Positions 112 to 17,820 of a stretch of DNA of 64,000 bases are shown one piece after another. Source of the DNA: Promethearchaeota archaeon (lineage in GTDB: Archaea; Asgardarchaeota; Lokiarchaeia; Sigyniarchaeales; SOKP01). Every line of letters starts with the position of its first letter. Positions within the stretch are counted from its first letter, which is position 1. A program made the position numbers and the translations under genes. The stretch covers positions 20,701 through 84,700 of the forward strand of contig JBHLNT010000003.1 in assembly GCA_048941265.1 (NCBI GenBank), in the 5' to 3' direction. The notes beneath the pieces are model-generated. The model worked only from the letters and a program-made list of their open reading frames with translations, made no database searches and had not been told where the DNA came from.

Positions 112-1488
112 TTAAATTTTATTTTTTGATCGATATTTAATTAGAACGATGGCAAGACCTAATATTGAACCTAAGATTAAGAAAACATCATACCCATATA
201 TGATATTTCCCTCATCATTACCGCTCTCATTATTATCGGATTTACTAGAACCTAAAACTCCTGAAAATTTTGCGAACAACGTTTGACCATAAAACCCCGA
301 ACCAAAATTTCTTGTGTAGCCTGCTATAAATATATCACTTACATTATTAATGACAATACCTTCAGCTCTATCATCATCACTTCCCCCCCAAATCAATTGG
401 TCTTTTATTCTACCATTGCAATCATATTTTAATAATAACACTTCATCTTCTTTTGCATAAGAATAAGAAGTCCCCGCTATGTATAAATTTCCTTTTTTAT
501 CTAATGTAATATCCCTTCCTACATCATCCCAATCTCCACCGTCCCAACTATATTGCCACAATTCTTTACCGGTATGATTATATTTATATAATGCCAAATC
601 ATCATCCGAGGGACCCTCGATAAAACCAGTTATATACACATTACTATCCTGATCAACTGCTATACCATCAATCCATTCATCTGCATTGCTTCTCCAGCGT
701 GTAAAATTCCATAGTTGTTTATTACTTGAGCTATATTTAACGAGCATGAGGTCTTGATAAGAAGTTGTAGAATTTTCAAGTACTCCTGCCACATATATAT
801 TATTATCTTTATCGATTGCTATACATTCTGCATATTCCTGATCAGGAAAATTCCATGTAGCATTCCAAATGGAAGTTTTATCCTTATCAAATTTCGCAAT
901 AAAATTACCACCAAAAGTGTCAGTAATACCACACACATATATATATCCATCACCGTCAATTACTATATCATTTCCTTCATCATCATTAGAACCTCCCCAA
1001 GTAAAATTCCATAATTCATTGCCATTACTGTCAAATTTTACTAAAAACATATTATCTGATCCTGTTATGGTGTTATTTATAACACCAGTAACATAAAAAT
1101 GACTTTCATTATCGGCAATTATCGCATTCCCTCTAGTTTTATATGGAGTTCCCCATGTATAGTTCCATAATTTCATTCCTTTTGCGTTATACTTGATAAT
1201 AAACATACTATATGGAGAGATCCCAAAACTATAAGTATATCCTGTTATATATAAATTTCCAAACTTGTCAATAGTAATGTCATTCGCTCTTTCGTAATCT
1301 AAACCCCCCCATAATCTATACCAATTGTTTGCTATACTTGAAGTTTTAAGATCGTCAACATTAGTGTAATTATCCTCATTTGGAGTATTAATATTCAGTG
1401 TTGTAATGTATAGATTTATCAATGATCCAAATATAAATGAAATTAGCAAAAAATAAATTAGTCTTTTAGAGTATATTTTTAATTCCAC
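112..1488 (-). CDS. Secreted beta-propeller (SBBP-repeat) protein with C-terminal Loki-CTERM-like anchor
   Basis: N-terminal hydrophobic segment; ~7 repeats of W..TWGG...D.G..I.ID..GN.Y+.G; C-terminal I.GYD + TM helix + basic tail. Confidence 0.8.
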   Translation of the reverse strand: MELKIYSKRLIYFLLISFIFGSLINLYITTLNINTPNEDNYTNVDDLKTSSIANNWYRLWGGLDYERANDITIDKFGNLYITGYTYSFGISPYSMFIIKYNAKGMKLWNYTWGTPYKTRGNAIIADNESHFYVTGVINNTITGSDNMFLVKFDSNGNELWNFTWGGSNDDEGNDIVIDGDGYIYVCGITDTFGGNFIAKFDKDKTSIWNATWNFPDQEYAECIAIDKDNNIYVAGVLENSTTSYQDLMLVKYSSSNKQLWNFTRWRSNADEWIDGIAVDQDSNVYITGFIEGPSDDDLALYKYNHTGKELWQYSWDGGDWDDVGRDITLDKKGNLYIAGTSYSYAKEDEVLLLKYDCNGRIKDQLIWGGSDDDRAEGIVINNVSDIFIAGYTRNFGSGFYGQTLFAKFSGVLGSSKSDNNESGNDEGNIIYGYDVFLILGSILGLAIVLIKYRSKNKI

Positions 1489-1774
1489 CTCTCGTTAATT
1501 TAAGATCATATTTTGTTATCATTTGGTATGAAAATATTATACTTTAGAATTTATAAATCTAAGTTCAAATTTATTGATATTATTCTTTTTTAATTAGAAA
1601 AGAAAAACCATATGAGGAATTAATTTCTGAAATATTATAATAACCTTGAAATAATATTTCAAAATAATTTCTTTTATAAAATGTGAATTATAATTCAAAA
1701 CCAATTATAACATTGGTCATAATTATTTTAAATCATTAATAAAATAAAATAGAATAGTTAAATAAATCTCAATA

Positions 1775-2158
1775 ATGGTTTTTTTTATGGATCGACAGGA
1801 TTTCATTAAACAATTGGCAAATGTATCTGATTTAATGGTAAAAGAAAAATATCAAGAAGCCCTAGTTATTCTCGAAAAATTGAAAGAAATCGAAAAAAAA
1901 GGGGATTTTGATTACAATTTGACACATAAACTCTATCAGCTTGATTCAAATACTCGCTCATTATACAATCAAGAAGTAATTCTTAACCAAATCAATGCTT
2001 TAGCTACGAAACAAACTATAATACCTTTAAAGAAACTACATGATTTAATAAAAGATGATCTACAAATTGATGAAAGTATGCTCAGAAGGGAGATTGAACT
2101 TCTTATATTAAGGGATAAGATTCAAATTCAGATTAATGGGAATGAGTTAAAATTTTAG
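1775..2158 (+). CDS. Hypothetical protein, helical hairpin plus PCI-like winged helix
   Basis: 127-aa ORF; C-terminus ...LRREIELLILRDKIQIQINGNELKF resembles the PCI winged-helix end. Confidence 0.5.
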   Translation: MVFFMDRQDFIKQLANVSDLMVKEKYQEALVILEKLKEIEKKGDFDYNLTHKLYQLDSNTRSLYNQEVILNQINALATKQTIIPLKKLHDLIKDDLQIDESMLRREIELLILRDKIQIQINGNELKF

Positions 2159-2552
2159 TAGTATTTTTTTGAGGTCTTTTCACAAAATAATCAATATTAT
2201 AATTATAAGTACAAACACAATCGTAAGATATATTAAAAGCGTTCCTAATATTCGAGACTTGTGGCTTTTTTTTTTAAAGTCTCAACCTTGATATCTTTAT
2301 CATGCCACCTTACTATTTCCTTATTGTTATTTTTTTTTCTTCTTATCTTCACTCTCGTTAGATTCTGCAAAACCACTTCATTCTTCTCTCATAATGGCCT
2401 TTTTAACATAGATTATTACTAGGACTTTAATGGTAAAATAATATACTATAATCTGAGGATTTTTAATTACTTTAGCATCAATCGTGTTAAAAATACTAGG
2501 GTTTTTATATCTATTTTTTAAATCAACATAAAATGATCGTGTTGATTAAAGT

Positions 2553-3158
2553 TTGATTGTTGATGCGTTAGATAAGATCATCCAGTTAAAAATAGTTTAC
2601 TTTGGACCAGCAATGTCAGGCAAGACAACTTCTCTTAAAAATCTTTTCAATCATTTCGGTAAAAATAAAGAAGTTGAAAGCGTGGAGAGCACAATTGGGA
2701 GAACATTATTTTTCGACTATGGCTTAATTAATTTTCAGAATGATAACTGGAAACTTAAAATTCATATATATTCGACTACGGGACAAGACTTTTACATTGT
2801 AACTCGACCTGTAACTCTCAAAGCTGTGGATGGGCTCATTTTCGTAGCAGATTCTCAAAAAATAGCTTATGAACGGAATGTGATTTCATGGGGGGAGCTA
2901 AGTTCATATTTTGGCGATAATTTAATTAAAATCCCGAAAGTGATCGCTTTAAATAAACAGGACCTTCAAGATAAGTTTAGTACTGCTCAGTTTTTAAAGC
3001 AAATAAACTTTGATATTTTAAGTCCTTACGCAAAAGTTACCAAAACTATTGCTTTAAATGGAGAAGGAATTTTAGAATCTTTTGAGAAAGTTTTAAGCTT
3101 AATATTTAAAGAATTATATGGCAGCCAAATGATTTTTGATTTAAACTATGGAAACTAG
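2553..3158 (+). CDS. MglA-like small GTPase
   Basis: KIVYFGPAMSGKTT P-loop, RTLFFD switch I, TGQ, NKQD; TTG start. Confidence 0.85.
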   Translation: MIVDALDKIIQLKIVYFGPAMSGKTTSLKNLFNHFGKNKEVESVESTIGRTLFFDYGLINFQNDNWKLKIHIYSTTGQDFYIVTRPVTLKAVDGLIFVADSQKIAYERNVISWGELSSYFGDNLIKIPKVIALNKQDLQDKFSTAQFLKQINFDILSPYAKVTKTIALNGEGILESFEKVLSLIFKELYGSQMIFDLNYGN

Positions 3159-3289
3159 ATTTTCTTAGAATGTTTTCATATTTTCATCTTGTTTTTTTGG
3201 ATATTATAAAGTAAATACTTTTAATAGGAGTTCTACTTACAATTATATTAATTGTTTTTCCTAAATCAAATTCAACTTTAAGGATTTAT

Positions 3290-4009
3290 TTGAGTCTAAC
3301 TTTAACTCCTGAAAATGTTTGTCATAAGGTTGTAAATAATCAATTAACTAAAGTTGCTGCCACTGGACTGTTGATATCCTTATTAGAAAGGAGTAATGAT
3401 GATGAGACTAGAGCAAAGTGTATTGATGCATTTTCGAAATTAGGGTTAAAAATGCAAAAAATTTTTAGAATCATAGAAAATTGTGTGCTTTCTGATACAA
3501 GCGCACTTGTCAGAAGAGCAGCAATAAGAGTATTAGTCCAAGATTTTCCTAAGAATGATAACTATCTTTTGTTAAAATGGGTGGTTAATCACGAAAATTC
3601 TGTGATTGTGGTTAAGCAGTTATTTGACTTATTTAACGGTATTGATGATCCACATTTTAATCTCTTTAAGAAAACTTTACTGAAGAAGCTTGAAGATGTA
3701 TATAATATTATAGCTGATGAAGTTGAACTTATTCTAAATTTAGGAATATTATATATTGAATATTCCGGGGAATTTCAATTGGACATGCATTCCTCTTGGT
3801 TTAAAATAATGGAATTTGTGAAAAAGTATCCTGATAATGTAGGATTGCTTCCGAGGCTTATGTACCTAAGATCTGGAGGTCATAAATTAAAGCCATTATC
3901 AAAAACTACGCTTTCACTTTCAGAACTTAGAAAAATTTATCTTAAGGATAATGAAATAAGTTCTCTACCGAATTTTTGGGACAGAATAAAAGTGATTAAA
4001 GGATTATAG
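3290..4009 (+). CDS. HEAT-repeat protein with C-terminal LRR-like remnant
   Basis: RAKCIDAF / LSDTSALVRRAAIRVL HEAT motifs; LSELRKIYLKDNEISSLP LRR motif. Confidence 0.7.
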   Translation: MSLTLTPENVCHKVVNNQLTKVAATGLLISLLERSNDDETRAKCIDAFSKLGLKMQKIFRIIENCVLSDTSALVRRAAIRVLVQDFPKNDNYLLLKWVVNHENSVIVVKQLFDLFNGIDDPHFNLFKKTLLKKLEDVYNIIADEVELILNLGILYIEYSGEFQLDMHSSWFKIMEFVKKYPDNVGLLPRLMYLRSGGHKLKPLSKTTLSLSELRKIYLKDNEISSLPNFWDRIKVIKGL

Positions 4010-7066: not shown

Positions 7067-8269
7067 TTAGAAAAAATCAGCCGATACTGGAGATTGTATT
7101 CTTATAGATTTTTGATTGTTATCCTCTAAGATTGAAATTAACGCAGATATATTTTGTTTAGATTTATAGGTAATCTCTTTTTCTTCATCTTTTTTCCAAC
7201 TTTTAAATCCAGTTAGATTAGGAGCTGTTTCAAATAGGCCTTCCTGTAAACCTGTGAGTTTTACAGTAACTCCTTCTAAATCCTCATTTGATGTGTTTTT
7301 AATTCGTACAGTATATTGTTCCAAGTCCGACTCTATTTCTATAACCTTATAAAATTTTTGAAACTTTGAAGAAATCCCATCAAATAAAGAGGGGGCACTA
7401 GCCTGTCCAGAAGAAAATAAATTTATTCCTTCCTGTTCCTTTCGGGCAGGTCCTGAGGTGATGGTAATAGGGATTTCAAATTTTATGATATCACGCCCAG
7501 TAGATGGCTTTCCAAGTACTAAGACAGACCACTTTGTATAATCACCATATCGAAATCCCCAGTATTCTTTATCCGTTGGTTCCCAAAGGTAATTGTGTGT
7601 TGGTTCTGCAATTTCTGGTACTTTTAACAACATAAAGCCTTGTTCTGTATTAGTAGTTTTTACATCTCCTGCGATGGCGGGGGGTAATTCCTCCACCTTA
7701 CGACAATTTTGGCCGTAAGCTTCACAATAACATACTATATTGGCAGACTGTAATAATCTTATTTCAATTTCTTTATAATGGTCGGAAGTGTAATTGAATT
7801 TAATAGTCTCTCCCGGTTTAAAAACATCTTTTTTGAGAAGAACATTCAAACCTGACATCGAAAAAGAAACAGGGTTTTGTGTTACAGCTTGAAGCTGTGA
7901 TTCTTTGACTTTAATTTCTATATCATGAGATTTTTTGACCACAATATTATCATCCGGATTTATTGGGTTTTCCTGTCGTAAGATCATTTGAATTGTATAC
8001 TCTAAATTTCGTTTTTTAATAGTAGGAATTACATTATTTTTTATGAGCATTGATCTTTCACGAATATATTCTCCCGCTTCAAAATTTCCTTTAGAAAATA
8101 TCTCCGCCTTTGCAATTTGAAGCTCTTTCAAACAAGGAGGATGAGTAATTAATCCTATTCCGCTCCATAAAATCGATGTCTCACCGTCAAAATTGAATTT
8201 CGTCCTTAGATTCAATTTTTCTCCGATATAGACCGAACCATTGTTTAAATCAGTTAATTCAAGCTTCAT
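7067..8269 (-). CDS. Arrestin/Vps26-like beta-sandwich protein with extra C-terminal Ig-like domain
   Basis: GEY...IPT....Y.IQM pattern of arrestin-N; LKKDVFKPGETI pattern of arrestin-C; all-beta character; inferred by eye. Confidence 0.5.
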   Translation of the reverse strand: MKLELTDLNNGSVYIGEKLNLRTKFNFDGETSILWSGIGLITHPPCLKELQIAKAEIFSKGNFEAGEYIRERSMLIKNNVIPTIKKRNLEYTIQMILRQENPINPDDNIVVKKSHDIEIKVKESQLQAVTQNPVSFSMSGLNVLLKKDVFKPGETIKFNYTSDHYKEIEIRLLQSANIVCYCEAYGQNCRKVEELPPAIAGDVKTTNTEQGFMLLKVPEIAEPTHNYLWEPTDKEYWGFRYGDYTKWSVLVLGKPSTGRDIIKFEIPITITSGPARKEQEGINLFSSGQASAPSLFDGISSKFQKFYKVIEIESDLEQYTVRIKNTSNEDLEGVTVKLTGLQEGLFETAPNLTGFKSWKKDEEKEITYKSKQNISALISILEDNNQKSIRIQSPVSADFF

Positions 8270-8461
8270 TATTTAATAGATTCAAATTGATTTTATTATG
8301 CTCATTTAATTAATTTATAAAGGTTTTGTACTATATTAATTTTTATGATTGCGACTTAAATTTCAAGAGTTTATTCCGAAATCTCCTAATTTATTGTTTT
8401 TTAAATAAAACTTTTACTTTTAATATCTTAAATCATTTTTAAAAATAATATATAATAAAAT

Positions 8462-9190
8462 ATGCTAAAAATTACTACTATGAGCTTAAGAAACAACATA
8501 AAAGCAATTCTTTTTGATCTGGATGGTACTCTCATAGAAGTTAATTTGAAATTATTCATCCCAGAATATTTAAAATTATTGGCTTCAAATGTATCTCATC
8601 TTGTAAGGCAAAGCAAATTTATTTCAAAACTTATGATTGCTTCACAGGAAGTGGATAAAAATGACGGAACCAAAACTAATGACCAAGTCTTTGCTGAAGC
8701 ATTTTTTCCTCTAATAGGCTATGCTCGAGAAGAGATGGATCCTTTGTTTGATAAATTTTATGAACAAGATTTTCCAAAACTTCGTCAATACACAAAACCA
8801 AAGCCCGCTGCTCGAAAAGTTATGAAACGCGCTTTTGAAAAAGGGTATGACGTGGTAATTGCAACTACTCCATTACTTCCTGAAACTGCAATTAGACAAC
8901 GTTTAGATTGGGCAGGAGTTCCTATTGATGATTTTCCTTATAAATTGATTACATCACTCGAAAATACGTATGCAAATAAACCAAATCTCTTATATTATGA
9001 GTTAATTGCTGATACTATAGGTTGCTCTCCGGAAGAATGTATGATGGTAGGAGATGAGGATAAAGATATGGTTGCAGCACGATTAGGAATGAAAACGTTT
9101 TTGGTGCAAAGTTCTAATACGAAATTAGGATCTGATATACCTAAACCGGATTACCAAGGAACTTTGGCTGATTTGGAAAAAATACTTTAA
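8462..9190 (+). CDS. HAD-superfamily hydrolase
   Basis: FDLDGTL motif I, KP motif, MVGD...D motif IV. Confidence 0.9.
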   Translation: MLKITTMSLRNNIKAILFDLDGTLIEVNLKLFIPEYLKLLASNVSHLVRQSKFISKLMIASQEVDKNDGTKTNDQVFAEAFFPLIGYAREEMDPLFDKFYEQDFPKLRQYTKPKPAARKVMKRAFEKGYDVVIATTPLLPETAIRQRLDWAGVPIDDFPYKLITSLENTYANKPNLLYYELIADTIGCSPEECMMVGDEDKDMVAARLGMKTFLVQSSNTKLGSDIPKPDYQGTLADLEKIL

Positions 9191-9191
9191 C

Positions 9192-9773
9192 TTATTCTTG
9201 ATCTATTATACGATTAATCTCATTGTATCTAAAGCAATCTATTATATGGTCATTTACCATACCGACGGCTTGCATAAAAGCATAACTAATAGTTGGTCCT
9301 ATGAATTTAAATCCTCTTTTCTTCAAATCCTTACTCATCTTTTCAGATTCCTTAGTTTGGGAGGGCAATTCTGAAAGGATTTTAAAATCATGTATAATAG
9401 GTTTATAGTTTACAAATTGCCAGATATACCTGTCAAAGGAACCAAACTGTTTCTGTACACCTAAAAAAGCTTTAGCATTGGAAACCGCGGCATTTATCTT
9501 TAACCAATTTCTTATAATATTGCTATTTCCCATCAATTCTTCAATTTTCTCTTCATTATATTGAGCTATTTTATTATAATTAAAACTATCAAATGCCTTT
9601 CTGTAATTTTCACGTTTTTGTAAGATTATATTCCAACTCAATCCCGCCTGAACTCCCTCTAATATTAAGAACTCAAAAAGAGAATCATCATCATGGTTGG
9701 GAACACCCCATTCTTTATCATGGTATTCTTTCATAATTTTGTTATAATTACCCCATTCACATCTCGAAACCAT
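9192..9773 (-). CDS. tag: DNA-3-methyladenine glycosylase I
   Basis: RCEW, YHDKEWGVP, LEGVQAGLSW, GFKFIGPT, GMVNDH...C. Confidence 0.95.
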   Translation of the reverse strand: MVSRCEWGNYNKIMKEYHDKEWGVPNHDDDSLFEFLILEGVQAGLSWNIILQKRENYRKAFDSFNYNKIAQYNEEKIEELMGNSNIIRNWLKINAAVSNAKAFLGVQKQFGSFDRYIWQFVNYKPIIHDFKILSELPSQTKESEKMSKDLKKRGFKFIGPTISYAFMQAVGMVNDHIIDCFRYNEINRIIDQE

Positions 9774-9853
9774 TTTAAAATTACTCTCAAAATATTTTAA
9801 TAGTCATATAAAAAGACAAAAAATAAATAAAGTTAATTGAATATCATTAAAAT

Positions 9854-10237
9854 ATGATAGAGAATGATGAATCTATTGAAAGATACTTTGATTGCCGTGT
9901 GTGCGGTCGTAGTCACAAAGTTAAATTAAATAAGAAGTTACTTGAGGGAAGGACTAAATTTCCATTTCCACAGATATACCTCCACGATCATATCGAAGGA
10001 ATTGAACATAAAGAAGTCTTGACAATCCTTTATTTAGATAACAATCTACAGATTAGACATACAGAAGTCCAGGAATTAGGTTCCGACTCTATTTTTTCTA
10101 AGGAGCAAGTAGAGGCAATAACTAAACCATTAATAGGTGAAATAGAACTTTTACGCGATGAAATCAGGAAGTTAAATAGAGAGATTAAGGATTTAAAAAT
10201 TAAACTTACTAGTAAGCATTATAATAGGCAATATTAA
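9854..10237 (+). CDS. Small CxxC Zn-binding protein with C-terminal coiled coil (paralog 1)
   Basis: CRVCGRSH, LHD, LTILYLD; highly similar to 10352-10705. Confidence 0.7.
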   Translation: MIENDESIERYFDCRVCGRSHKVKLNKKLLEGRTKFPFPQIYLHDHIEGIEHKEVLTILYLDNNLQIRHTEVQELGSDSIFSKEQVEAITKPLIGEIELLRDEIRKLNREIKDLKIKLTSKHYNRQY

Positions 10238-10351
10238 ATCTTCTTAAACAAAAATGTAAGACTTAATTTCATAACTTTAACGTACATGATTTTGAGTTTT
10301 TAAATTTACGCCAAAACTTAAGCATTAATATTCCTTTATTATATTTGCATT

Positions 10352-10705
10352 ATGGAAGATAAAGAAGATTTCATCGAAAGACCTTTTCGGTGTAAAATTT
10401 GTAATAAAACTCATATGGTCAAATTAAACAAAAAAATTATAGAAGGTCGTAAGAAATTCCCCTTACCCTACGTTTTTCTCCATGATTCCATCAATGGAGT
10501 TCAACATAAGGAAGTTTTAACTATTCTTTACATAGATAGTAATTTACAGATACGGCATTCAGAAATTCAAGAATTAGGATACGACGACTTGTTCTCTAAA
10601 GAGCAAGTAGTCGCGATAATGAGACCATTATTAGAAGAGATTAATATCCTAAGAACAGAAGTAGAAAAACTCACGGCGGAGCTTAAAAGCTATAGAAACA
10701 ATTAA
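10352..10705 (+). CDS. Small CxxC Zn-binding protein with C-terminal coiled coil (paralog 2)
   Basis: CKICNKTH, LHD, LTILYID; tandem duplicate of 9854-10237. Confidence 0.7.
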   Translation: MEDKEDFIERPFRCKICNKTHMVKLNKKIIEGRKKFPLPYVFLHDSINGVQHKEVLTILYIDSNLQIRHSEIQELGYDDLFSKEQVVAIMRPLLEEINILRTEVEKLTAELKSYRNN

Positions 10706-10792
10706 AAAAGAGATATAACATTCTTTTTATAATTTCTTTAAGATTTGGTAATAAAAAAGAAAGAAAGAAAAAATTTAGAAGTTTCCGTTTTT

Positions 10793-11701
10793 TTAATCAA
10801 CATGAGCTGATATAACTAAATCAGCGAATAATTTCATATCTTTTAACAAAGTATTGAGCTTATCTTGTGATTCCATATCAAGTTCTTCAGATTTCATTAT
10901 GAGTACTGATAAAATATACTTAAAAATGTGCAGCTCAATTTCTTTTCCATCATCACTTTGCCCTTTAAATGCTGCTGAATCATTCATAAATATGTTTTCC
11001 CGAACTGTGTTGCATGCATTTATGAAATCTCTTAAATCGCCCCTCAATGTTAATCCACTGCTAACTCCTTGAACATTATGGACAATTACATTTCCAGATA
11101 TATCAGAAATGATTATTTTCGCTTTAATTTCTTCAAGGCGCTCTTCTGCTTTTTCTACATGCGATTTTAAATCAGCATATGATGCAATCAATATATCTCG
11201 AAAAGTTTTTGCCAATTTATCCTGGTCATATATACTCGTAAGCATATATTCAAATTCGTAGTCCTTAAATATATCTATAAAAATTTCTTTTGCCTTTTTT
11301 ACATTGGTATCCAATAACTCTTTCTCATATTGTTCAGAATCGTATTTATGGAGGAATAGAAATACTTTTGGCTTCTCATTATTCTTTCGGTAAATATCAA
11401 GTAGGCCCTTGAAATATTCTTTTGCCTGTTCAAAATTTTTCGGATCATGAAGATCAACGATCGGTATTAGAATATCCGTTCCCCTAAATATATCTGGTTT
11501 TTCCATGTATTCTTTTCTATATTGCTCCTGGCCACCAAAATCAAAGATCCCTACTTGTAGTCCAAGGAACGGGTGTCTTCTAGTTTCATATAATATCGTG
11601 GGGCTTAACGCTTTTGTATCTTGAGGTGATTTTTCTGCAAATGCTACACTATATAAGGAGGTCTTTCCGCATCCCCCTAATCCTACTAAGCTAATTTTCA
11701 T
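10793..11701 (-). CDS. Rag/Gtr1-like small GTPase with C-terminal roadblock/longin-like domain
   Basis: GLGGCGKTS, SPT, DFGGQ, LHKYD and TSIYD (Rag-type G4/G5); ~120-aa alpha/beta C-terminal extension. Confidence 0.8.
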   Translation of the reverse strand: MKISLVGLGGCGKTSLYSVAFAEKSPQDTKALSPTILYETRRHPFLGLQVGIFDFGGQEQYRKEYMEKPDIFRGTDILIPIVDLHDPKNFEQAKEYFKGLLDIYRKNNEKPKVFLFLHKYDSEQYEKELLDTNVKKAKEIFIDIFKDYEFEYMLTSIYDQDKLAKTFRDILIASYADLKSHVEKAEERLEEIKAKIIISDISGNVIVHNVQGVSSGLTLRGDLRDFINACNTVRENIFMNDSAAFKGQSDDGKEIELHIFKYILSVLIMKSEELDMESQDKLNTLLKDMKLFADLVISAHVD

Positions 11702-11801
11702 TTTTGCAAGCCTCTTAAATTATGTATATTATTAATTAATCACTTCATTTAACTTTTGATTGGTATCATTCGTTTTAACTTTTTCTTGCTAATTTTTTAT
11801 T

Positions 11802-13280
11802 TTATTCTTTTTTTGCCTCAAATTTTATAGTTCTTGAAAATATTTTACCATATAATTCAGATGTAGCTTCAAGAAGAACAGCACCCTCTAAAGAATCAAC
11901 TGGATAATCTACATCAATTGATTCATAAGGAAATATTTCTTTAATGGTGGTTATCCAAGGTTTACTCTCAAAAACTTCATCTATCGTAGCAATTCGAATT
12001 TGAATTTTTTCTAAAGTGAATCCTGCTGTATTTGTTATAGTCAAGTTAAGTTTTTTTTTCTTTTCATCTAATAATTTAGTTACAGATATAGCGCGTCTCG
12101 TACCAAATACCGACTTAGCTTGCTCACTTATCTCTTTGGTTTCAATTCTAGATTCCTCTTCATCTATCATATCTTTCACAATAAAGACTTTTCTTTTTTG
12201 GATAGTATATTGGCTTACTTTCTTTAATTTTCCTAAAAACAATACTGCGTTTAAATTTATGGCATTATATGGTTCGATTGTTAAATATCCTTTTTTAGCA
12301 GCATCTTCAATAATTTCAGCTCCGATTGAAGTTCTTGCAAATACCGTATTCTTATTTGCTCCCGAACCAACTGATCCGACAGAAATATCCGCATTTTCAG
12401 CAGTTAAATCTGTACAAAAACTACATGAAGAGCTTTTATATTTATGAAGGGTATTTATAGTATATGATTTTATAGGTTCTTCTTGGTTCTCGTAATATAA
12501 ATTAAATTTACCTTTATTAATATCCATTTTTACAACTTTAGCTAAATCTATGCCATCGTTCTGAAACATAGGGTATAAAGTTTCAGGAGAAAAACTATCC
12601 ATACAAAACAGCCCTATTGTTAAAATATGAGCCCTCATAAAGTATTTAAGCATACCTGAGGGAGAATTATACATTTTATATACTGCATCGATGTTGCAGG
12701 GAGTCCCTACGAAAGCAATTGATCTATAATCCGCGCGTATGGCATCCATTAAAGAATCTACAGTTTGACTGTGTGCATATATTGAACCAGAGGATTTAAT
12801 CGCATCATCCTTACTAGTAATTATTTGGGCAATAGGATACCAAGGTTTATCTGGATCTTTCATGGTAACAATCGCAGCATCGATTAGATGTTCATCAAAC
12901 AAATAACATAAGAGGCTAGTAACTGTACCTCCATCTTGGCCTCCAATTACTTCAGGGATGTTTGTATTGGCTACATATCCGCTTTTAAACTCACCTATAA
13001 GTTGGACTGGATCTGTAATTGTACGGGGGCATTGATTGTAACATATTCCACAGCCAGTACATTTTCCTATTAACTTAGGTTGTCCAGTGAGATGATCCCA
13101 CTCTAAGACAGGACATACAGCAGCACAAGTTCCACATTGAGTGCAAATTCCTGATCTTACGATTTCTTTCATCAACATTCCAAAAGAATCCTTCTTACCT
13201 TCAAGCTTCTTCTGGATAAAGTCAAACGAATATTTATACTTAGAGTCAGCTTGTTCGTGTTTAACTTCTTCTTCTGTCAT
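11802..13280 (-). CDS. FrhB/FdhB-family F420-dependent oxidoreductase subunit with 2x[4Fe-4S] and C-terminal Ig-like extension
   Basis: Two CxxCxxCxxxCP motifs, GQDGGTVT, VGTPC, GLFCM, CSFCTD, ADISVGSVG. Confidence 0.85.
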   Translation of the reverse strand: MTEEEVKHEQADSKYKYSFDFIQKKLEGKKDSFGMLMKEIVRSGICTQCGTCAAVCPVLEWDHLTGQPKLIGKCTGCGICYNQCPRTITDPVQLIGEFKSGYVANTNIPEVIGGQDGGTVTSLLCYLFDEHLIDAAIVTMKDPDKPWYPIAQIITSKDDAIKSSGSIYAHSQTVDSLMDAIRADYRSIAFVGTPCNIDAVYKMYNSPSGMLKYFMRAHILTIGLFCMDSFSPETLYPMFQNDGIDLAKVVKMDINKGKFNLYYENQEEPIKSYTINTLHKYKSSSCSFCTDLTAENADISVGSVGSGANKNTVFARTSIGAEIIEDAAKKGYLTIEPYNAINLNAVLFLGKLKKVSQYTIQKRKVFIVKDMIDEEESRIETKEISEQAKSVFGTRRAISVTKLLDEKKKKLNLTITNTAGFTLEKIQIRIATIDEVFESKPWITTIKEIFPYESIDVDYPVDSLEGAVLLEATSELYGKIFSRTIKFEAKKE

Positions 13281-13462: not shown

Positions 13463-14899
13463 TCAATCATGTAAAATTGGTTTTCTTGCAGCTTGGACTG
13501 CATCTAAACGCTTAACTGGAGTAGTATGAGGGGAATTTTTAAGTAGTTCAGGATTAACCTTTGCTTCTTCATAGACATTTAACATAACATTAACAAAATT
13601 ATCTAGAGATGCTTTAGACTCTGTTTCAGTTGGTTCAATCATCATTGCTCCGCTAACAATTAAGGGGAAATAAATTGTTGGAGCATAAATCCCATAATCA
13701 AGAATTCTTTTAGCTATATCTTCGGTAGTTATGTCATTAGGTAAATTTTTATCAGAAAGAACAAATTCATGTTGGCATAATCGTTTATAGGGTAAGTGGT
13801 ATTTTTTTTTTAATTGAACTTGTAAATAATTTGCATTTAAAACGGACATCTCTCCTACACGTCTTAAACCTTGACCTCCTAATGCAAGTAAATATGCATA
13901 TGCTCTTATGATAACACCAAAATTGCCCCAAAAACTTCTCATTCTTCCAATACTACTTTCAGAGCTTTCTCTATATTGAAAACCATCTTTATGTGAAATA
14001 ATACAGGGCTTTGGGAGAAATGGAATCAGATATTCTTTAACTCCCACTGGTCCAGAACCAGGGCCACCTCCTCCATGAGGAGTCGAAAAGGTTTTATGTA
14101 AATTCAAGTGAATAATATCGAATCCCATATCTCTTGGTCGAGAAATTCCTAATATTGGATTTAAATTAGCACCATCATAATAACATAATCCCCCATAATC
14201 ATGAACAATTTTAGTAATATCTTTAATATTCCTTTCAAATAAACCTAATGTATTAGGATTAGTTAACATGATTCCAGCAACATTATCTCCTTCCATTGCA
14301 TATTTAAGAAGATCTAATGGAATCTCTCCGTCGTTATTAGACCTTATTTTAATAATTGAAAAGCCTGCCATCTTTGTTGATGCGGGATTTGTTCCATGAG
14401 CTGATTCGGGAACAATAATCGAAATTTTTTTGTGATTTTTGGTTTCAAAATATTTTTTTATGATTAACAATCCCGTTAATTCACCATGAGCACCTGCAGC
14501 TGGCTGAAATGTAAATCCATCCATTCCCGTTATTTCACATAATAATTTAGATAATTCATTCATTAACTCAAGTGCACCCTGATTTTCTTCTTGTAGCGGA
14601 TGCAATTTAGAAAAATTCGCAAGCCGAGCTATAACCTCATTGATTTTAGGATTATATTTCATGGTACATGATCCTAAAGGATATATCCCCGTGTCGATAC
14701 CATAAGTTTTCTGGCTCAAATTTAAATAATGACGTACGATTTCAATTTCCGGTATGTTAGGTATTGGCAATTCCTCTCGCTGTAATGATTTAGGTAATAA
14801 TTCATCAATATTCACCCTTTCAACGTCCATTTTGGGAATAAAATTATTATATGGATAGTTATAACTCTTTTCAAAGATTAGTTTTAAATTTGAATGCAT
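13463..14899 (-). CDS. gcvPB: Glycine dehydrogenase (decarboxylating) subunit 2
   Basis: PLGSCTMKYNP, QPAAGAHGE, HLNLHKTFSTPHGGGGPGSGP (PLP lysine). Confidence 0.95.
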   Translation of the reverse strand: MHSNLKLIFEKSYNYPYNNFIPKMDVERVNIDELLPKSLQREELPIPNIPEIEIVRHYLNLSQKTYGIDTGIYPLGSCTMKYNPKINEVIARLANFSKLHPLQEENQGALELMNELSKLLCEITGMDGFTFQPAAGAHGELTGLLIIKKYFETKNHKKISIIVPESAHGTNPASTKMAGFSIIKIRSNNDGEIPLDLLKYAMEGDNVAGIMLTNPNTLGLFERNIKDITKIVHDYGGLCYYDGANLNPILGISRPRDMGFDIIHLNLHKTFSTPHGGGGPGSGPVGVKEYLIPFLPKPCIISHKDGFQYRESSESSIGRMRSFWGNFGVIIRAYAYLLALGGQGLRRVGEMSVLNANYLQVQLKKKYHLPYKRLCQHEFVLSDKNLPNDITTEDIAKRILDYGIYAPTIYFPLIVSGAMMIEPTETESKASLDNFVNVMLNVYEEAKVNPELLKNSPHTTPVKRLDAVQAARKPILHD

Positions 14900-14901
14900 T
14901 C

Positions 14902-16242
14902 TTAACTCCTCGATTTTGTTTTATGAATAGATATTGAGGCAGCATTAAGGAAAGCTTCAATATCAGATTTTTTATTCATTTCAGTTACACAAACTAAAGC
15001 TACATCTTTCATATCAGCAAAGTATTTAGATAATTTTAGAGGTGGTAGTAAATTTGCTTCTTTACATAAAGTTCTAAATTCATCTATATTTGGACATTTA
15101 ACTAAAAATTCATTATATGTAGGTTTCTGATTTAAAATTTCAAAGCCTTCTAAATTTCCTAATTTGTGTTTAACATAATTTGCCTTTTGAAAATTCTGCT
15201 CCGCAATTTCCCTCAGGCCTGTTTTCCCAAGAGAAATCAGATATATTAATGCTGCCAATGAACATAAGGATTGATTTGTGCAAATATTTGAGATTGCCTT
15301 TTCTCGACGAATGTGTTGTTCGCGTGCTTGTAATGTTAATATAAAACCCTCTTTTTCACCATTGATTTCTTTAGTTTTACCAATCAATCTGCCTGGAACT
15401 TTGCGTAAGAAGAGATCTTTAGCGGTAAAGATTCCTAATCCAGGTCCTCCAAAGGACGGAGCAATTCCCAGTGATTGGCCCTCTGCAACAAATATATCTA
15501 TATCTAATTCTCCAGGAGGTTTTAGTATCCCTAAGCATGTCAAATCCGTCATTACCTGAATTATTAAACATTGATGGACAATCGATCTAATTTTTTCTAC
15601 TAAAGATGGAACATTTTCTATATCTCCAAAAAAATTAGGACTTTGAAAAAGAACTGCTGCAATATCCTCATTTAATTTTGAAAATAGCAATTTCTCCGAG
15701 ACAATTTCATATTCGATATGATAACCCCAACAATAGGTTTTGACTACCTCTAAATATTCTGGATGAATACCCTCTAATAATAGAATTTTATTTTTTTGGG
15801 TAATGATAGTCGAAATAATGGCTGCTTCTGCGAGCGCCGTAGAACCATCATACATGCTTGCGTTAGCGACGTCCATTCTTGTTAACCTAGAAATCGCTGA
15901 TTGATACTCAAAAATTGCTTGTAAATAGCCTTGACTAGCCTCTGATTGGTATGGAGTATAAGAACTATAAAACTCCGATCGACTAATCACAAACTCAATT
16001 AAGGAAGGAATATAGTGATAATAACAACCAGCTCCCAAAAAAGAACTTGCATAAATCTTGTTTTTTTTTGCCAATTGTTTTAATCTTCTCAAAAGATCTG
16101 GCTCAGATAAGCCCTCTGGAAGAGAAAGTCTATTTATTTTTAATTCATTCGGAATATCCTTAAAAAGATCTTCAATAGAATTCACTCCTATAACTTTTAA
16201 CATATCTTTAATTGTTTCATTGTCATGTGGAATAAAATCCAA
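14902..16242 (-). CDS. gcvPA: Glycine dehydrogenase (decarboxylating) subunit 1
   Basis: FLGAGCY, YTPYQSEASQG, NASMYDG, LQAREQHIRREKAISNICTNQ. Confidence 0.95.
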   Translation of the reverse strand: MDFIPHDNETIKDMLKVIGVNSIEDLFKDIPNELKINRLSLPEGLSEPDLLRRLKQLAKKNKIYASSFLGAGCYYHYIPSLIEFVISRSEFYSSYTPYQSEASQGYLQAIFEYQSAISRLTRMDVANASMYDGSTALAEAAIISTIITQKNKILLLEGIHPEYLEVVKTYCWGYHIEYEIVSEKLLFSKLNEDIAAVLFQSPNFFGDIENVPSLVEKIRSIVHQCLIIQVMTDLTCLGILKPPGELDIDIFVAEGQSLGIAPSFGGPGLGIFTAKDLFLRKVPGRLIGKTKEINGEKEGFILTLQAREQHIRREKAISNICTNQSLCSLAALIYLISLGKTGLREIAEQNFQKANYVKHKLGNLEGFEILNQKPTYNEFLVKCPNIDEFRTLCKEANLLPPLKLSKYFADMKDVALVCVTEMNKKSDIEAFLNAASISIHKTKSRS

Positions 16243-16292
16243 ATTCCATACCCCGCTAAATTATATTAAATTGAAATTAAATAGAGAAATCA

Positions 16293-16700
16293 TCACTGAT
16301 TTTCCTCCTCTTGAATCAATTCTTTATATTGAATTGCTGTAAGCAATGTATCTAATTCAGTTGGCTTATTGAATTTAATTTTTAAAAACCAGCCCTCTTC
16401 ATAGGGGGAGGAATTAATTAATTCGGGCTTATCACGAATTTGGCCATTTATTTCAACGATTTCACCTGATAAAGGCATATAAAACTCGTTTACAGCCTTT
16501 ACAGATTCAATTTCTCCAATCATTCTCCCTTTTTCAAAAATATCTCCAATTCGAGGTAATTCTACATATACCACATCACTAAGTTGATGTTGAGCATAAT
16601 CAGTAACACCCATTACGGCTAAATTGTTTTCTACCCTTACCCATTCATGGGATTTTGTATATTTCAACTCTGAAGGAACATTAAATTCCATTTGAATCAT
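16293..16700 (-). CDS. gcvH: Glycine cleavage system H protein
   Basis: YTKSHEW, G+TDYAQ, ESVKA lipoyl-lysine motif, PYEEGW. Confidence 0.95.
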   Translation of the reverse strand: MIQMEFNVPSELKYTKSHEWVRVENNLAVMGVTDYAQHQLSDVVYVELPRIGDIFEKGRMIGEIESVKAVNEFYMPLSGEIVEINGQIRDKPELINSSPYEEGWFLKIKFNKPTELDTLLTAIQYKELIQEEENQ

Positions 16701-16722
16701 TCAATTATTTTAATTATTTTTT

Positions 16723-17820
16723 TTAAACATTTCGATAAAAAGGTGTAGGTACTACATTACATCTCAATAATTTTTCTCGAATTTCAATTTCTAATTCGGT
16801 TCCGATGGAGCTTAAATCTTTCCTGACTAACGCTAAACCAATGGTTTTTTTTAATGTAGGTGAATACCCACCAGAAGTAACATAACCTATTTTTTCATTT
16901 TCCTTGAATAGCTTGCAATTTTCTCTTATTATCCCTCGGTCTAAAAGATTTAATCCTACGAGAATACGGGATGGTCCTTTTTTTTTTTGATTTAAAAGAG
17001 CTTTTTTTCCTGAAAAATCAATTCCATTCTTTTCTTTAACCACCCACCCAATACTCGCTTCAATTGGTGTAATAGTTTCACTAATTTCATGTCCATATAA
17101 GGAATAACACGCTTCTAAACGTAATGTATCGCGAGCACCTAATCCAACGGGTTGTGCTCCAGTTTGAAGAATAGTTTCCCATATTTTTTCTGCTTGGCGA
17201 GCGTCAGAAGATAATTCTACCCCATCTTCCCCTGTATAACCTGTTCGAGCAATGAAGATTGGTATTTTATCCAAATTACACTCCATGAAATAAAATCTTT
17301 TAAGAGCAGTTAAATTTCTATCAATTAAGGAATTGAGTAGTTCAATGCTTTTTGGACCTTGAAATGCTAAACGACATCTCTCTTTAGAAATATCTGAAAT
17401 TGATAAATCATAATCATTTATATGGTCAGAAATCCACTGGAAATCCTTAATTTTATTACTTGCATTAACTATCATTCGAAATCTTTTATTACTTTCCATG
17501 TAATATATAGTATCGTCAACAACAGTTCCATCATCATAACACATAACAGAATATTGACTTTTCCCTACTTCTAGAAGCCTTAAATCATTTGTCATTATAG
17601 ATTGAAGGAAATCGAAAGCGCCTTTACCATTGAGGAGAAATTCACCCATATGAGAAATATCAAATAAGCCTGCTTTTTTCCTAACCATTTCATGCTCCTT
17701 TATTATACTTTCATATTGTACAGGCATCAACCATCCGGCGAAATCGATGATTCTTGCTCCGTATTTTAAATGCATCTTATATAAAGGAGTCCGATGCTTA
17801 TTATTTTTTTCTGATGCCAA
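16723..17820 (-). CDS. gcvT: Glycine cleavage system aminomethyltransferase T
   Basis: FAGWLMPVQY, FDISHMGE, RTGYTGEDG, GLGARDTLRLEA. Confidence 0.95.
   Translation of the reverse strand: MASEKNNKHRTPLYKMHLKYGARIIDFAGWLMPVQYESIIKEHEMVRKKAGLFDISHMGEFLLNGKGAFDFLQSIMTNDLRLLEVGKSQYSVMCYDDGTVVDDTIYYMESNKRFRMIVNASNKIKDFQWISDHINDYDLSISDISKERCRLAFQGPKSIELLNSLIDRNLTALKRFYFMECNLDKIPIFIARTGYTGEDGVELSSDARQAEKIWETILQTGAQPVGLGARDTLRLEACYSLYGHEISETITPIEASIGWVVKEKNGIDFSGKKALLNQKKKGPSRILVGLNLLDRGIIRENCKLFKENEKIGYVTSGGYSPTLKKTIGLALVRKDLSSIGTELEIEIREKLLRCNVVPTPFYRNV

Follow-up and report, generated by a model that had tools for sequence, protein, structure and literature searches.

A Rag-like GTPase of Asgard archaea encoded with an FrhB-like flavoprotein and a predicted arrestin-fold protein that share a C-terminal Ig-like domain

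Within a 64,000-nucleotide stretch of contig JBHLNT010000003.1 from a Promethearchaeota archaeon (hereafter the window), we analyzed an AT-rich region (about 30% G+C) in which an FrhB-like Fe-S flavoprotein (F), a Rag-like GTPase (R) and an arrestin-like protein (A) are all encoded on the minus strand and in the same orientation. The analysis indicates that F, R and A make up a real, apparently undescribed Asgard gene module, in which F and A end in one homologous Ig-like domain (hereafter the tail) that is also found in a third protein family (L). The parts belong to known families, and it is the tail family and the gene module that appear undescribed. We infer that F, R and A, along with L, work together, given that F, A and L have homologous tails, that fold classes and families were assigned, and that the genes keep their order and co-occur. 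The reading that we favour, namely a conserved module around R in which the tail serves as a tethered assembly domain, has in our estimate about an even chance of being right as a whole (a probability of roughly 0.5). A first-pass annotation, made from the letters of the window, had proposed that one Ig-like domain is carried by two proteins flanking a Rag GTPase and acts as a shared docking domain that ties F420 redox state to GTPase signalling, and its docking reading is plausible.

A C-terminal domain common to three protein families

The peptides in which the likeness had been noticed correspond to residues 323-368 of A and 415-459 of F, and our recount agreed with the reported 13 identities in 46 columns with one gap. 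As a single pair, A and F are not significantly similar (BLASTP E 1.6), and when profiles of the full-length proteins were compared, the sole match ran tail to tail and was weak (P 0.009, probability 4.5%, Neff 1.7). Since the full-length profiles were too little diverse, tail-only profiles comprising 16 and 19 diverse relatives were adopted, the F, R and A genes having been gathered from 20 related genomes. With these profiles, hhalign aligned the A tail with the F tail over 76 columns at a probability of 87.7% (E 3.4e-6, score 36.4; 89.6% in a second run). As controls, 200 column shuffles of the F-tail alignment gave a mean score of 11.5 (standard deviation 2.5, maximum 22.3), the reversed alignment gave 11.0, and both arrestin lobes of A, themselves genuine beta-sandwiches, scored 10.7 and 15.6 against the F tail. 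When a hidden Markov model (HMM) of the A tail was compared with all 12,752 open reading frames (ORFs) of the window's own genome, F was the best non-self match (E 0.0015); A was not listed in the corresponding search with the F-tail HMM. Both tail HMMs found two more proteins of about 340 amino acids, encoded on contigs C64 and C96, which constitute the L family, and these genome-wide searches returned only the F, A and L families. The L tail was aligned by hhalign with the F tail at 98.5% (E 2e-15) and with the A tail at 97.9% (E 3.1e-13), and a merged tail alignment of 28 rows was collinear with few gaps, an N, an F and an E being invariant and a second E near-invariant. One might ascribe the likeness to chance, that is, to unrelated beta-sandwiches in accidental neighbours, as the pairwise E value and the 4.5% probability of the full-length profiles would suggest. 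This explanation is already contradicted by the tail profiles with their controls, by the bridging L family, by the blind genome-wide HMM ranking and by the linkage and co-occurrence across families and classes (see below), and we find it hardly credible.

The predicted fold agrees with the profile comparison. Folded alone, the F tail gave a seven-stranded sandwich with a predicted local distance difference test (pLDDT) score of 76.7, the first 14 residues of the model scoring below 50, and under the merged alignment its seven strands pair in order with the seven strands of the third domain of A. The structural neighbours of the tail were generic Ig, Fn3 and PKD domains (Z 6.9-8.3; Foldseek E 2e-3 to 1e-2), among which no specific family stands out, and no meaningful Pfam family was found on the tails when 19 F tails were scanned at E <= 10 and A and F at E <= 0.1; CARDB (PF07705) in particular was unmatched at the same thresholds. 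With solved look-alikes of this generic kind, the term Ig-like is right even though the tail lies outside known families. Like the CARDB/DUF11/NEW3 and the appendage/GAE Ig-like domains, the tails are predicted to be seven-stranded, and the 'x-phi-x-phi-x-N' pattern of their second strand resembles CARDB-like repeats, which match the tail profile weakly and partially (positions about 15-36 or 15-75). Unlike CARDB or appendage-type domains, the full-length domain with its FE and E motifs occurs only in three Asgard architectures. The A and F tails are thus one homologous Ig-like domain, and their fold class is modelled as a seven-stranded Ig-like sandwich. On this point the first-pass annotation was borne out: the profiles, with all controls at or below 22.3, and the two sandwich models brought to light no difference in fold between the tails.

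The tail always stands at the C terminus behind a flexible linker, and none of the F, A and L orthologues examined has lost it. When the merged tail profile was compared with 1,835,955,588 representative proteins, 113 matched at E <= 1e-3, and these were classed by length, match position and Pfam content. They comprise F-like proteins (about 480-510 amino acids, with FrhB domains), A-like proteins (about 375-406 amino acids, three of them with a sub-threshold Arrestin_C match), L-like proteins (about 325-357 amino acids, no Pfam match), fragments, and weak partial CARDB/DUF11/ASH repeats in giant proteins. In what follows, f-numbers denote families within the sampled phylum, G-numbers genomes (G000 being that of the window) and L-numbers loci. 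The tail profile matched 84 of 251 genomes sampled across the phylum, distributed by family as 51/54 in f1, 5/5 in f11, 3/3 in f16, 6/6 in f22 and 16/16 in f25; matches were thus concentrated in particular families, and many others had no match, for example f10 (0/59) and f8 (0/26).

The L proteins consist of an N-terminal part without family assignment followed by the tail. Nothing meaningful was found for L in Pfam, no match in NCBIfam, and its profile reached only E 0.35 against solved chains; in the ESM Atlas it fell into Promethearchaeota clusters only, none of them named. A longin-like nature of the N-terminal part, which we considered, is unsupported (hhalign against the C-terminal domain of R, probability 0.1%). 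One relative of L, P0233, carries four CBS domains as a fusion, which ties L to adenine-nucleotide-binding modules. L shares a contig with F, R and A in several genomes of the window's own family, at a distance of 10-30 kb. The second L paralogue of the window's genome (349 amino acids) is encoded 21 nucleotides downstream of the large subunit of an Mvh/Vhu-type [NiFe] hydrogenase (G000, contig C64, 644-3471), which itself follows a small-subunit fragment.

Two other accounts of the tail have to be considered at this point. According to the first, the tail would be a self-association or stability domain without any shared function, spread by duplication of a 3' segment, and F, R and A would cooperate by other means. 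Ig-like domains are often oligomerization or spacer domains, and the tail genes neighbour each other, which favours local duplication. A short C-terminal extension mediates homodimerization in the zeta subunit of structure 8RIU, as the part of the publication available to us describes (PMC11493965). Against this stand the retention of the tail in all orthologues examined and the N..FE..E motif, whose invariance in three families that are 15-25% identical, and from one Asgard class to another, argues for one constrained surface; we therefore regard self-association as a rather unlikely explanation. According to the second account, the tail would attach to a lipid or a membrane surface or recognize a small ligand, gathering F, A and L at one site in this way, the link to R being made through other surfaces. 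The weak fold matches include lipid-binding NPC2/ML sandwiches, the adaptin appendage and the BBSome GAE domain, the invariant N, FE and E could make a small polar site, and tail-bearing L exists in some genomes that lack F, R and A. The fold matches are nevertheless all generic (Foldseek E >= 2e-3, Z <= 8.3) and no membrane anchor was seen in any member, so that we give a placement domain of this kind a similarly small share of belief.

Gene order and co-occurrence in related genomes

Presence of the three genes was compared across 41 relatives, an R orthologue being defined by at least 59% identity, or by 61-67% over part of the protein. R was found in 26 of them, the F tail in 23 and A in 22, and all genomes bearing A or the F tail fall within the 26 that bear R. 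The other 15 have neither A nor the F tail nor R, their best GTPase match being at most 37% identical; they include four genomes of the window's own family and all 11 of family f2, in which A, the F tail and L are all absent (0/11). Where both A and the F tail were present, they lay on one contig in 19 of 21 genomes, and F and R did so in 21 of 23. The distance between F and R was 44-137 nucleotides in 18 of 19 loci, and in the window it is exactly the 100 nucleotides given by the first-pass annotation for the two co-oriented genes. Eighty further loci were found via R, and, in the 67 that extend far enough, F stood immediately upstream 61 times, was nearby three times and was missing three times (58 of the 61 were counted by script and gave the median gap of 84 nucleotides; the remaining three, missed by the filter, were read from the same output).

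A lies downstream of R in the same orientation, and F, R and A are contiguous in this order in 7 of 17 loci holding both R and A. Of the 80 loci found via R, 33 have A within 4.5 kb, and 14 could not be decided. In those 33, the stretch from R to A contained a HAD hydrolase alone (13 loci), a glycosylase and the HAD hydrolase (11), a CxxC protein and the HAD hydrolase (1), the glycosylase alone (1), or none of the queries (7). The HAD hydrolase, encoded on the opposite strand, thus intervenes in 25 of 33 loci, all in the window's own family, and may be a lineage-specific accessory gene. In three genomes of f4 (the window's own order), F, R, A and L follow each other contiguously.

The array is also found in distant Asgard archaea. 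In genomes of Freyarchaeum, Freyarchaeota and Jordarchaeia, lineage names that were taken from the source names on the proteins, the genes run in the order CBS protein, L, C25-type peptidase, F, R, A with gaps of 10-76 nucleotides from L to A (loci L027, 1-11000, and L029, 1-10900). By source names, the array therefore occurs in at least two Asgard groups, Lokiarchaeia/Promethearchaeia and Freyarchaeia/Jordarchaeia, and the genes, whose linkage in related genomes the earlier annotation had left to be checked, did not prove unlinked. The Peptidase_C25 protein of the Freyarchaeia-type loci has GIFT/ABC_transp_aux-like parts. As a core component of the module this peptidase was rejected: 37 of 41 relatives have it, among them all 11 genomes of f2, and in the window's own genome it is unlinked to the array. 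Two V4R-domain proteins follow A in L027, and the single V4R copy of the window's own genome is likewise unlinked to the array. A second FrhB-like gene without a tail lies convergently just past A in L028 (1454-2872) and L029 (629-2086), and at locus L017 of genome G033 (1400-3500) a toxin-antitoxin-like pair of small proteins and a 444-residue ATPase-like ORF were noticed downstream of R, in the place expected for A, by looking at the sequence, without a domain scan; A was not found in G033 with the query used.

The three proteins and their surroundings in the window

The features of the three genes and of the genes around them are collected in Table 1.

Table 1. Coordinates of F, R, A and neighbouring genes, counted from the first nucleotide of the window
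Feature	Position	Strand	Basis
F, 492-residue FrhB-family Fe-S flavoprotein (ferredoxin domain, F420-reductase-like domain, linker, tail)	11802..13280	-	ORF and Pfam
F residues 41-87, two CxxCxxCxxxC motifs, predicted 2x[4Fe-4S] ferredoxin domain	13020..13160	-	Pfam Fer4 family
F residues 103-339, FrhB_N and FrhB_C, F420-reductase-like FAD/[4Fe-4S] domain	12264..12974	-	Pfam
F residues 365-394, acidic, variable linker before the tail	12099..12188	-	variable alignment columns; pLDDT <50
F tail, residues 395-490, predicted seven-stranded Ig-like beta-sandwich of about 95 residues with conserved N..FE..E	11811..12098	-	AlphaFold (AF2) model, hhalign
F-R spacer, exactly 100 nucleotides	11702..11801	-	
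R, 302-residue Rag/Gtr1-family GTPase	10793..11701	-	PF04670
R G domain, residues 1-172	11186-11701	-	
R C-terminal domain, 130 residues	10796-11185	-	
A, 400-residue predicted arrestin-fold protein with tail	7067..8269	-	ORF, AF2 model
A residues 1-273, two predicted beta-sandwich lobes, arrestin/Vps26/Spo0M-like	7451..8269	-	structure comparison of the model
A C180, C182 and C189 (CxC-x6-C)	7703..7732	-	invariant in family
A C46	8132-8134	-	invariant in family
A residues 274-299, disordered linker	7373..7450	-	low pLDDT
A tail, residues 300-398, predicted seven-stranded Ig-like domain homologous to the F tail	7076..7372	-	model, hhalign
HAD hydrolase between R and A	8462-9190	+	Pfam
3-methyladenine glycosylase between R and A	9192-9773	-	Pfam
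Two paralogous CxxC/coiled-coil proteins between R and A	9854-10237 and 10352-10705	+	
ORFs upstream of F resembling a full glycine-cleavage set	13463-17820	-	Pfam (gcvPB), BLAST (gcvPA); gcvH and gcvT by look of the sequence only, unscanned

The assignment of R to the Rag/Gtr1 family, made in the first-pass annotation, is well founded: Pfam Gtr1_RagA (PF04670) matched residues 2-172 with 91.4 bits against a cut-off of 22 (E 7.7e-26), and the best solved relatives were Gtr1, RagA and 8yl2_A, which ranked above Arl and Arf proteins. The P-loop GxxGxGKTS and the motifs DFGGQ and HK[YF]D are kept in 18 orthologues, with a mean column identity of 80%, and the HKxD form of the G4 motif presumably resembles that of Rag proteins. 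The C-terminal 130 residues of R are conserved, and sequence matches to solved Rag and Gtr chains end at residues 170-229. R thus has in common with the eukaryotic Rag/Gtr proteins and their systems (Ragulator/EGO, GATOR, folliculin) the family's G domain followed by a C-terminal domain, here of about 130 residues, and, like the Rags, it appears to have dedicated partner proteins. It differs from them in that its C-terminal domain is unmatched to the Rag roadblock domain by sequence and that, whereas Rag and Gtr proteins form an A/C-type heterodimer, each Asgard array holds a single R gene (G016 has a second copy elsewhere, 57% identical). Unlike the Rag/Gtr systems, the array has no roadblock-only, LAMTOR-like or DENN gene, its partners being an Fe-S flavoprotein and an arrestin-fold protein. 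In three relatives the match of the R orthologue is split near residue 52-53 or starts only at residue 53 (G021:C179:4469-5409, G024:C62:3212-4148 and G012:C13:16431-17186, of which G024 and G012 also have neither A nor the F tail), and this recurrent split may reflect a frameshift, an insertion or a fault of assembly.

F gave clear Pfam matches to FrhB_FdhB_N (E 2.6e-19, 69.6 bits, cut-off 22) and FrhB_FdhB_C (E 3e-40, 138 bits, cut-off 23.3) and carries 4Fe-4S motifs; its ferredoxin-motif cysteines are invariant among 29 relatives, and three Fe-S sites are predicted in all. Its closest solved relative is 8riu_B, the zeta subunit of an F420-reducing carbon monoxide dehydrogenase (CODH; E 1e-48, residues 32-355), and the F420-dependent sulfite reductase Fsr (E 3.9e-46) and FrhB are among the next best. 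F stays below the NCBIfam frhB equivalog TIGR03289 (163.2 bits, cut-off 331.5) and below PRK09325 (207.4, cut-off 269), and the FpoF cut-off is likewise unreached; since its scores lie under the NCBIfam cut-offs for FrhB and FpoF, F is classed by sequence as a member of the FrhB/FdhB/FpoF family and as an orthologue of neither FrhB nor FpoF. FrhA and FrhG were not found among its neighbours in the window, which are the GTPase and the glycine-cleavage genes. Two copies of cofE, together with cofD and cofH, scored above their cut-offs in the window's genome, so that coenzyme F420 is probably made by this organism and available to F, and its use by F is plausible in view of these genes and of the resemblance to F420-reductase modules. 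The zeta subunit of 8RIU consists of a ferredoxin domain, an F420-reductase domain and the dimerizing extension mentioned above, according to the part of the source at hand (PMC11493965). F shares with such plug-in modules (FrhB, 8RIU zeta, FwdI of 8RJA and the N-terminal half of Fsr) the predicted sequence of a 2x[4Fe-4S] ferredoxin domain and an FrhB-like FAD/[4Fe-4S] domain. Whereas the genes for these modules accompany that of a catalytic redox partner with which the modules assemble, F neighbours a GTPase, and in place of the 20-residue extension of 8RIU zeta it has a linker of 30 residues and an Ig-like domain of 95.

For A, 426 relatives were found, none of them named, and the protein matched 0 Pfam families at E <= 0.1 and no NCBIfam family; Arrestin_C appeared below threshold in 3 of 70 scanned relatives (24.6 bits, cut-off 27.7), and PF02752 is precomputed on 2 of 119. 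The AF2 model (pLDDT 71.2) consists of two lobes (residues 1-120 and 134-270), a disordered stretch (274-304, pLDDT <50) and a third sandwich (307-392). When this model was compared with solved structures by VIA, residues 1-123 were matched to Spo0M (5cl2_A) with Z 15.1 and a root mean square deviation of 1.6 over 114 aligned residues, the lobes to the N-lobe of ARRDC3 (Z 13.3), VPS26C (Z 13.2) and TXNIP (Z 12.9), and residues 1-273 to VPS26C, TXNIP, Vps26 and arrestins (Z 11.3-13.2). Foldseek ranged from 8e-10 to 1e-7 (VPS26C 8.3e-10, TXNIP 6.7e-9), and multi-Ig proteins such as complement C4 also score against A. Because both lobes match Spo0M, ARRDC3, VPS26C, TXNIP and Vps26, the label arrestin-like, which the earlier annotation had used, is supported at the level of a predicted fold, namely the two-lobe arrestin/Vps26/Spo0M fold with Z of 12-15. 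A shares this predicted fold with the arrestin clan (TXNIP, ARRDC3, Vps26/VPS26C, Spo0M) and differs from it by the additional C-terminal Ig-like domain and the absence of a Pfam arrestin match. Within this clan, TXNIP is a redox-linked arrestin that binds thioredoxin via a cysteine, the link to thioredoxin being given in the title of entry 4ll1.

A further feature of A is a set of four cysteines, C46, C180, C182 and C189, which are invariant in 23 of 23 sequences of the family, down to less than 30% identity and across Asgard lineages, and which account for four of only 29 invariant positions. The loop 182-188 is modelled with a pLDDT below 50, as expected for a metal-dependent loop, and the four cysteines are candidates for metal binding. 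For a protein of arrestin fold, a metal or Fe-S site would, if true, be unusual. These cysteines lend themselves to an explanation in which R and A, the latter as a four-cysteine carrier of metal or Fe-S clusters, would load or repair the clusters of F and related enzymes, and the tail would be the handle by which helper and client meet. Such a maturation system would account for the invariance of the cysteines, for the three predicted Fe-S sites of F and for the L paralogue that follows the large subunit of the Mvh-type hydrogenase in 7 of the 13 f1 genomes that have this hydrogenase, and GTPases are common in metal-centre assembly. The GTPases known from there (HypB, UreG, CooC), however, belong to a class other than the Rag/Arf-like one, arrestin-fold proteins are not known to carry clusters, and no Fe-S assembly genes are present in the array; we judge maturation to be unlikely.

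Among the remaining neighbours, the two CxxC proteins have an N-terminal CxxC, a conserved HKEVLTILY stretch, a C-terminal coiled coil and no Pfam family. The first-pass annotation had counted them as possible partners in the module; they were found only in the closest relatives, where a single-copy CxxC gene adjoins R (L001, L020), arrays elsewhere have none, and because of this limited occurrence we do not regard them as core. A link between F and glycine cleavage was rejected as well: of the 26 relatives having gcvPB, G000 and G003 alone have it next to F, and it occurs in 10 of 11 genomes of f2, a family without the module, so that the neighbourhood was judged incidental. Both gcvPA and gcvPB were also seen near the array in L027. 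Downstream of A in the window lies a gene for tagaturonate epimerase.

The module in its biological context

On the reading that we favour, the tail would be a common assembly domain, tethered by its linker, that brings the otherwise unrelated F, A and L to one partner or site. Since R is the only constant member without a tail, it would be the simplest candidate for that partner, which is a guess; alternatively, the tails could bind each other. The GTPase cycle of R would be coupled with the F420/Fe-S redox module in one complex, and control could run from the redox state to the GTPase or from the GTPase to the placement of the enzyme. A complex prediction of R with the A tail and the F tail gave no answer (score 0.00) and speaks neither for nor against binding.

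Several observations weigh against this reading. The claim that tail-bearing genes flank R holds on the F side; on the A side, four unrelated genes (8462-10705) part R from A in the window, so that A does not abut R, and A was not found within 4.5 kb in 33 R loci with at least 4.4 kb of downstream sequence. The two genomes in which F and R are not on one contig are G014 and G017, with a real break in the flanks in G017, and in family f25 L stands before F, F and R face each other in convergent orientation, and the surroundings yielded no A. L is present without F, R and A in G001, G004 and G010, and the 7 of 13 hydrogenase-bearing f1 genomes in which an L paralogue follows the Mvh-type hydrogenase include that of the window. 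Because L occurs without the triad and beside a hydrogenase, the tail is not solely a docking device for this R, and it may link its host proteins among themselves or attach them to some component that this region does not encode. F and R may be transcribed separately, in view of the spacer, which contains TTAAAT (about 11747-11752) 45 nucleotides before the start of R and GAGG just before the ATG; in an alignment of nine F-R spacers, T61, A62, A63, A64 and T65 are invariant. We take TTAAAT for a candidate archaeal TATA box, and it may be a separate promoter of R, with GAGG as the ribosome-binding site. A look-up of sequencing runs listed four, from two studies and all of DNA, with no RNA run among them. 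Finally, the structure models are of middling confidence (pLDDT 71 for A and 77 for the F tail), and every genome used was assembled from metagenomes.

A more specific mechanism can be imagined for A. Here C46 of lobe 1 and C180, C182 and C189 of lobe 2 might hold an Fe-S cluster or a metal between the lobes, F would charge or discharge this site with electrons from F420H2, and the resulting movement of the lobes, like the activation of eukaryotic arrestins, would be read by R through the shared tails. Such a switch, with a redox-gated arrestin acting upstream of a primordial Rag pathway, seems to us very unlikely; if it were true, energy and redox sensing by Rag proteins would be older than TOR and lysosomes.

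Arrestin-domain genes and many Rag-like GTPases are, as far as the consulted parts of the literature go, already on record for Asgard archaea. The available part of one study (PMC10933270) states the roles of Asgard Rab and Rag proteins as unknown and describes the GTPase genes of MK-D1 as lying generally outside operons with regulators, so that genome layout reveals no partners. The available part of a preprint (10.1101/2020.10.19.343400) describes an Asgard operon that encodes a Rab-like GTPase together with a DENN protein and a LAMTOR1-like protein. There, too, a small GTPase forms the centre of a conserved array and its partners have eukaryote-like domains, and the difference from the F/R/A array lies in the GTPase family and in the partners; the words 'arrestin' and 'FrhB' have 0 occurrences in that text. 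An array of FrhB-like, Rag-like and arrestin-like genes or the tail domain was described in no title or abstract opening that we searched, supplements and subscription journals being outside this search.

Asgard genomes are rich in Rag-, Arf- and Rab-like GTPases, and here one Rag-like GTPase has conserved, tightly spaced neighbours. These neighbours, which include a redox enzyme and an arrestin-fold protein that have a private domain in common, are the first concrete candidate partners to be named for an Asgard Rag-like GTPase, and they provide a short list for joint expression with which the role of an archaeal Rag GTPase becomes testable at the bench. The module also raises the possibility that the coupling of Rag GTPases to metabolic state predates eukaryotes.

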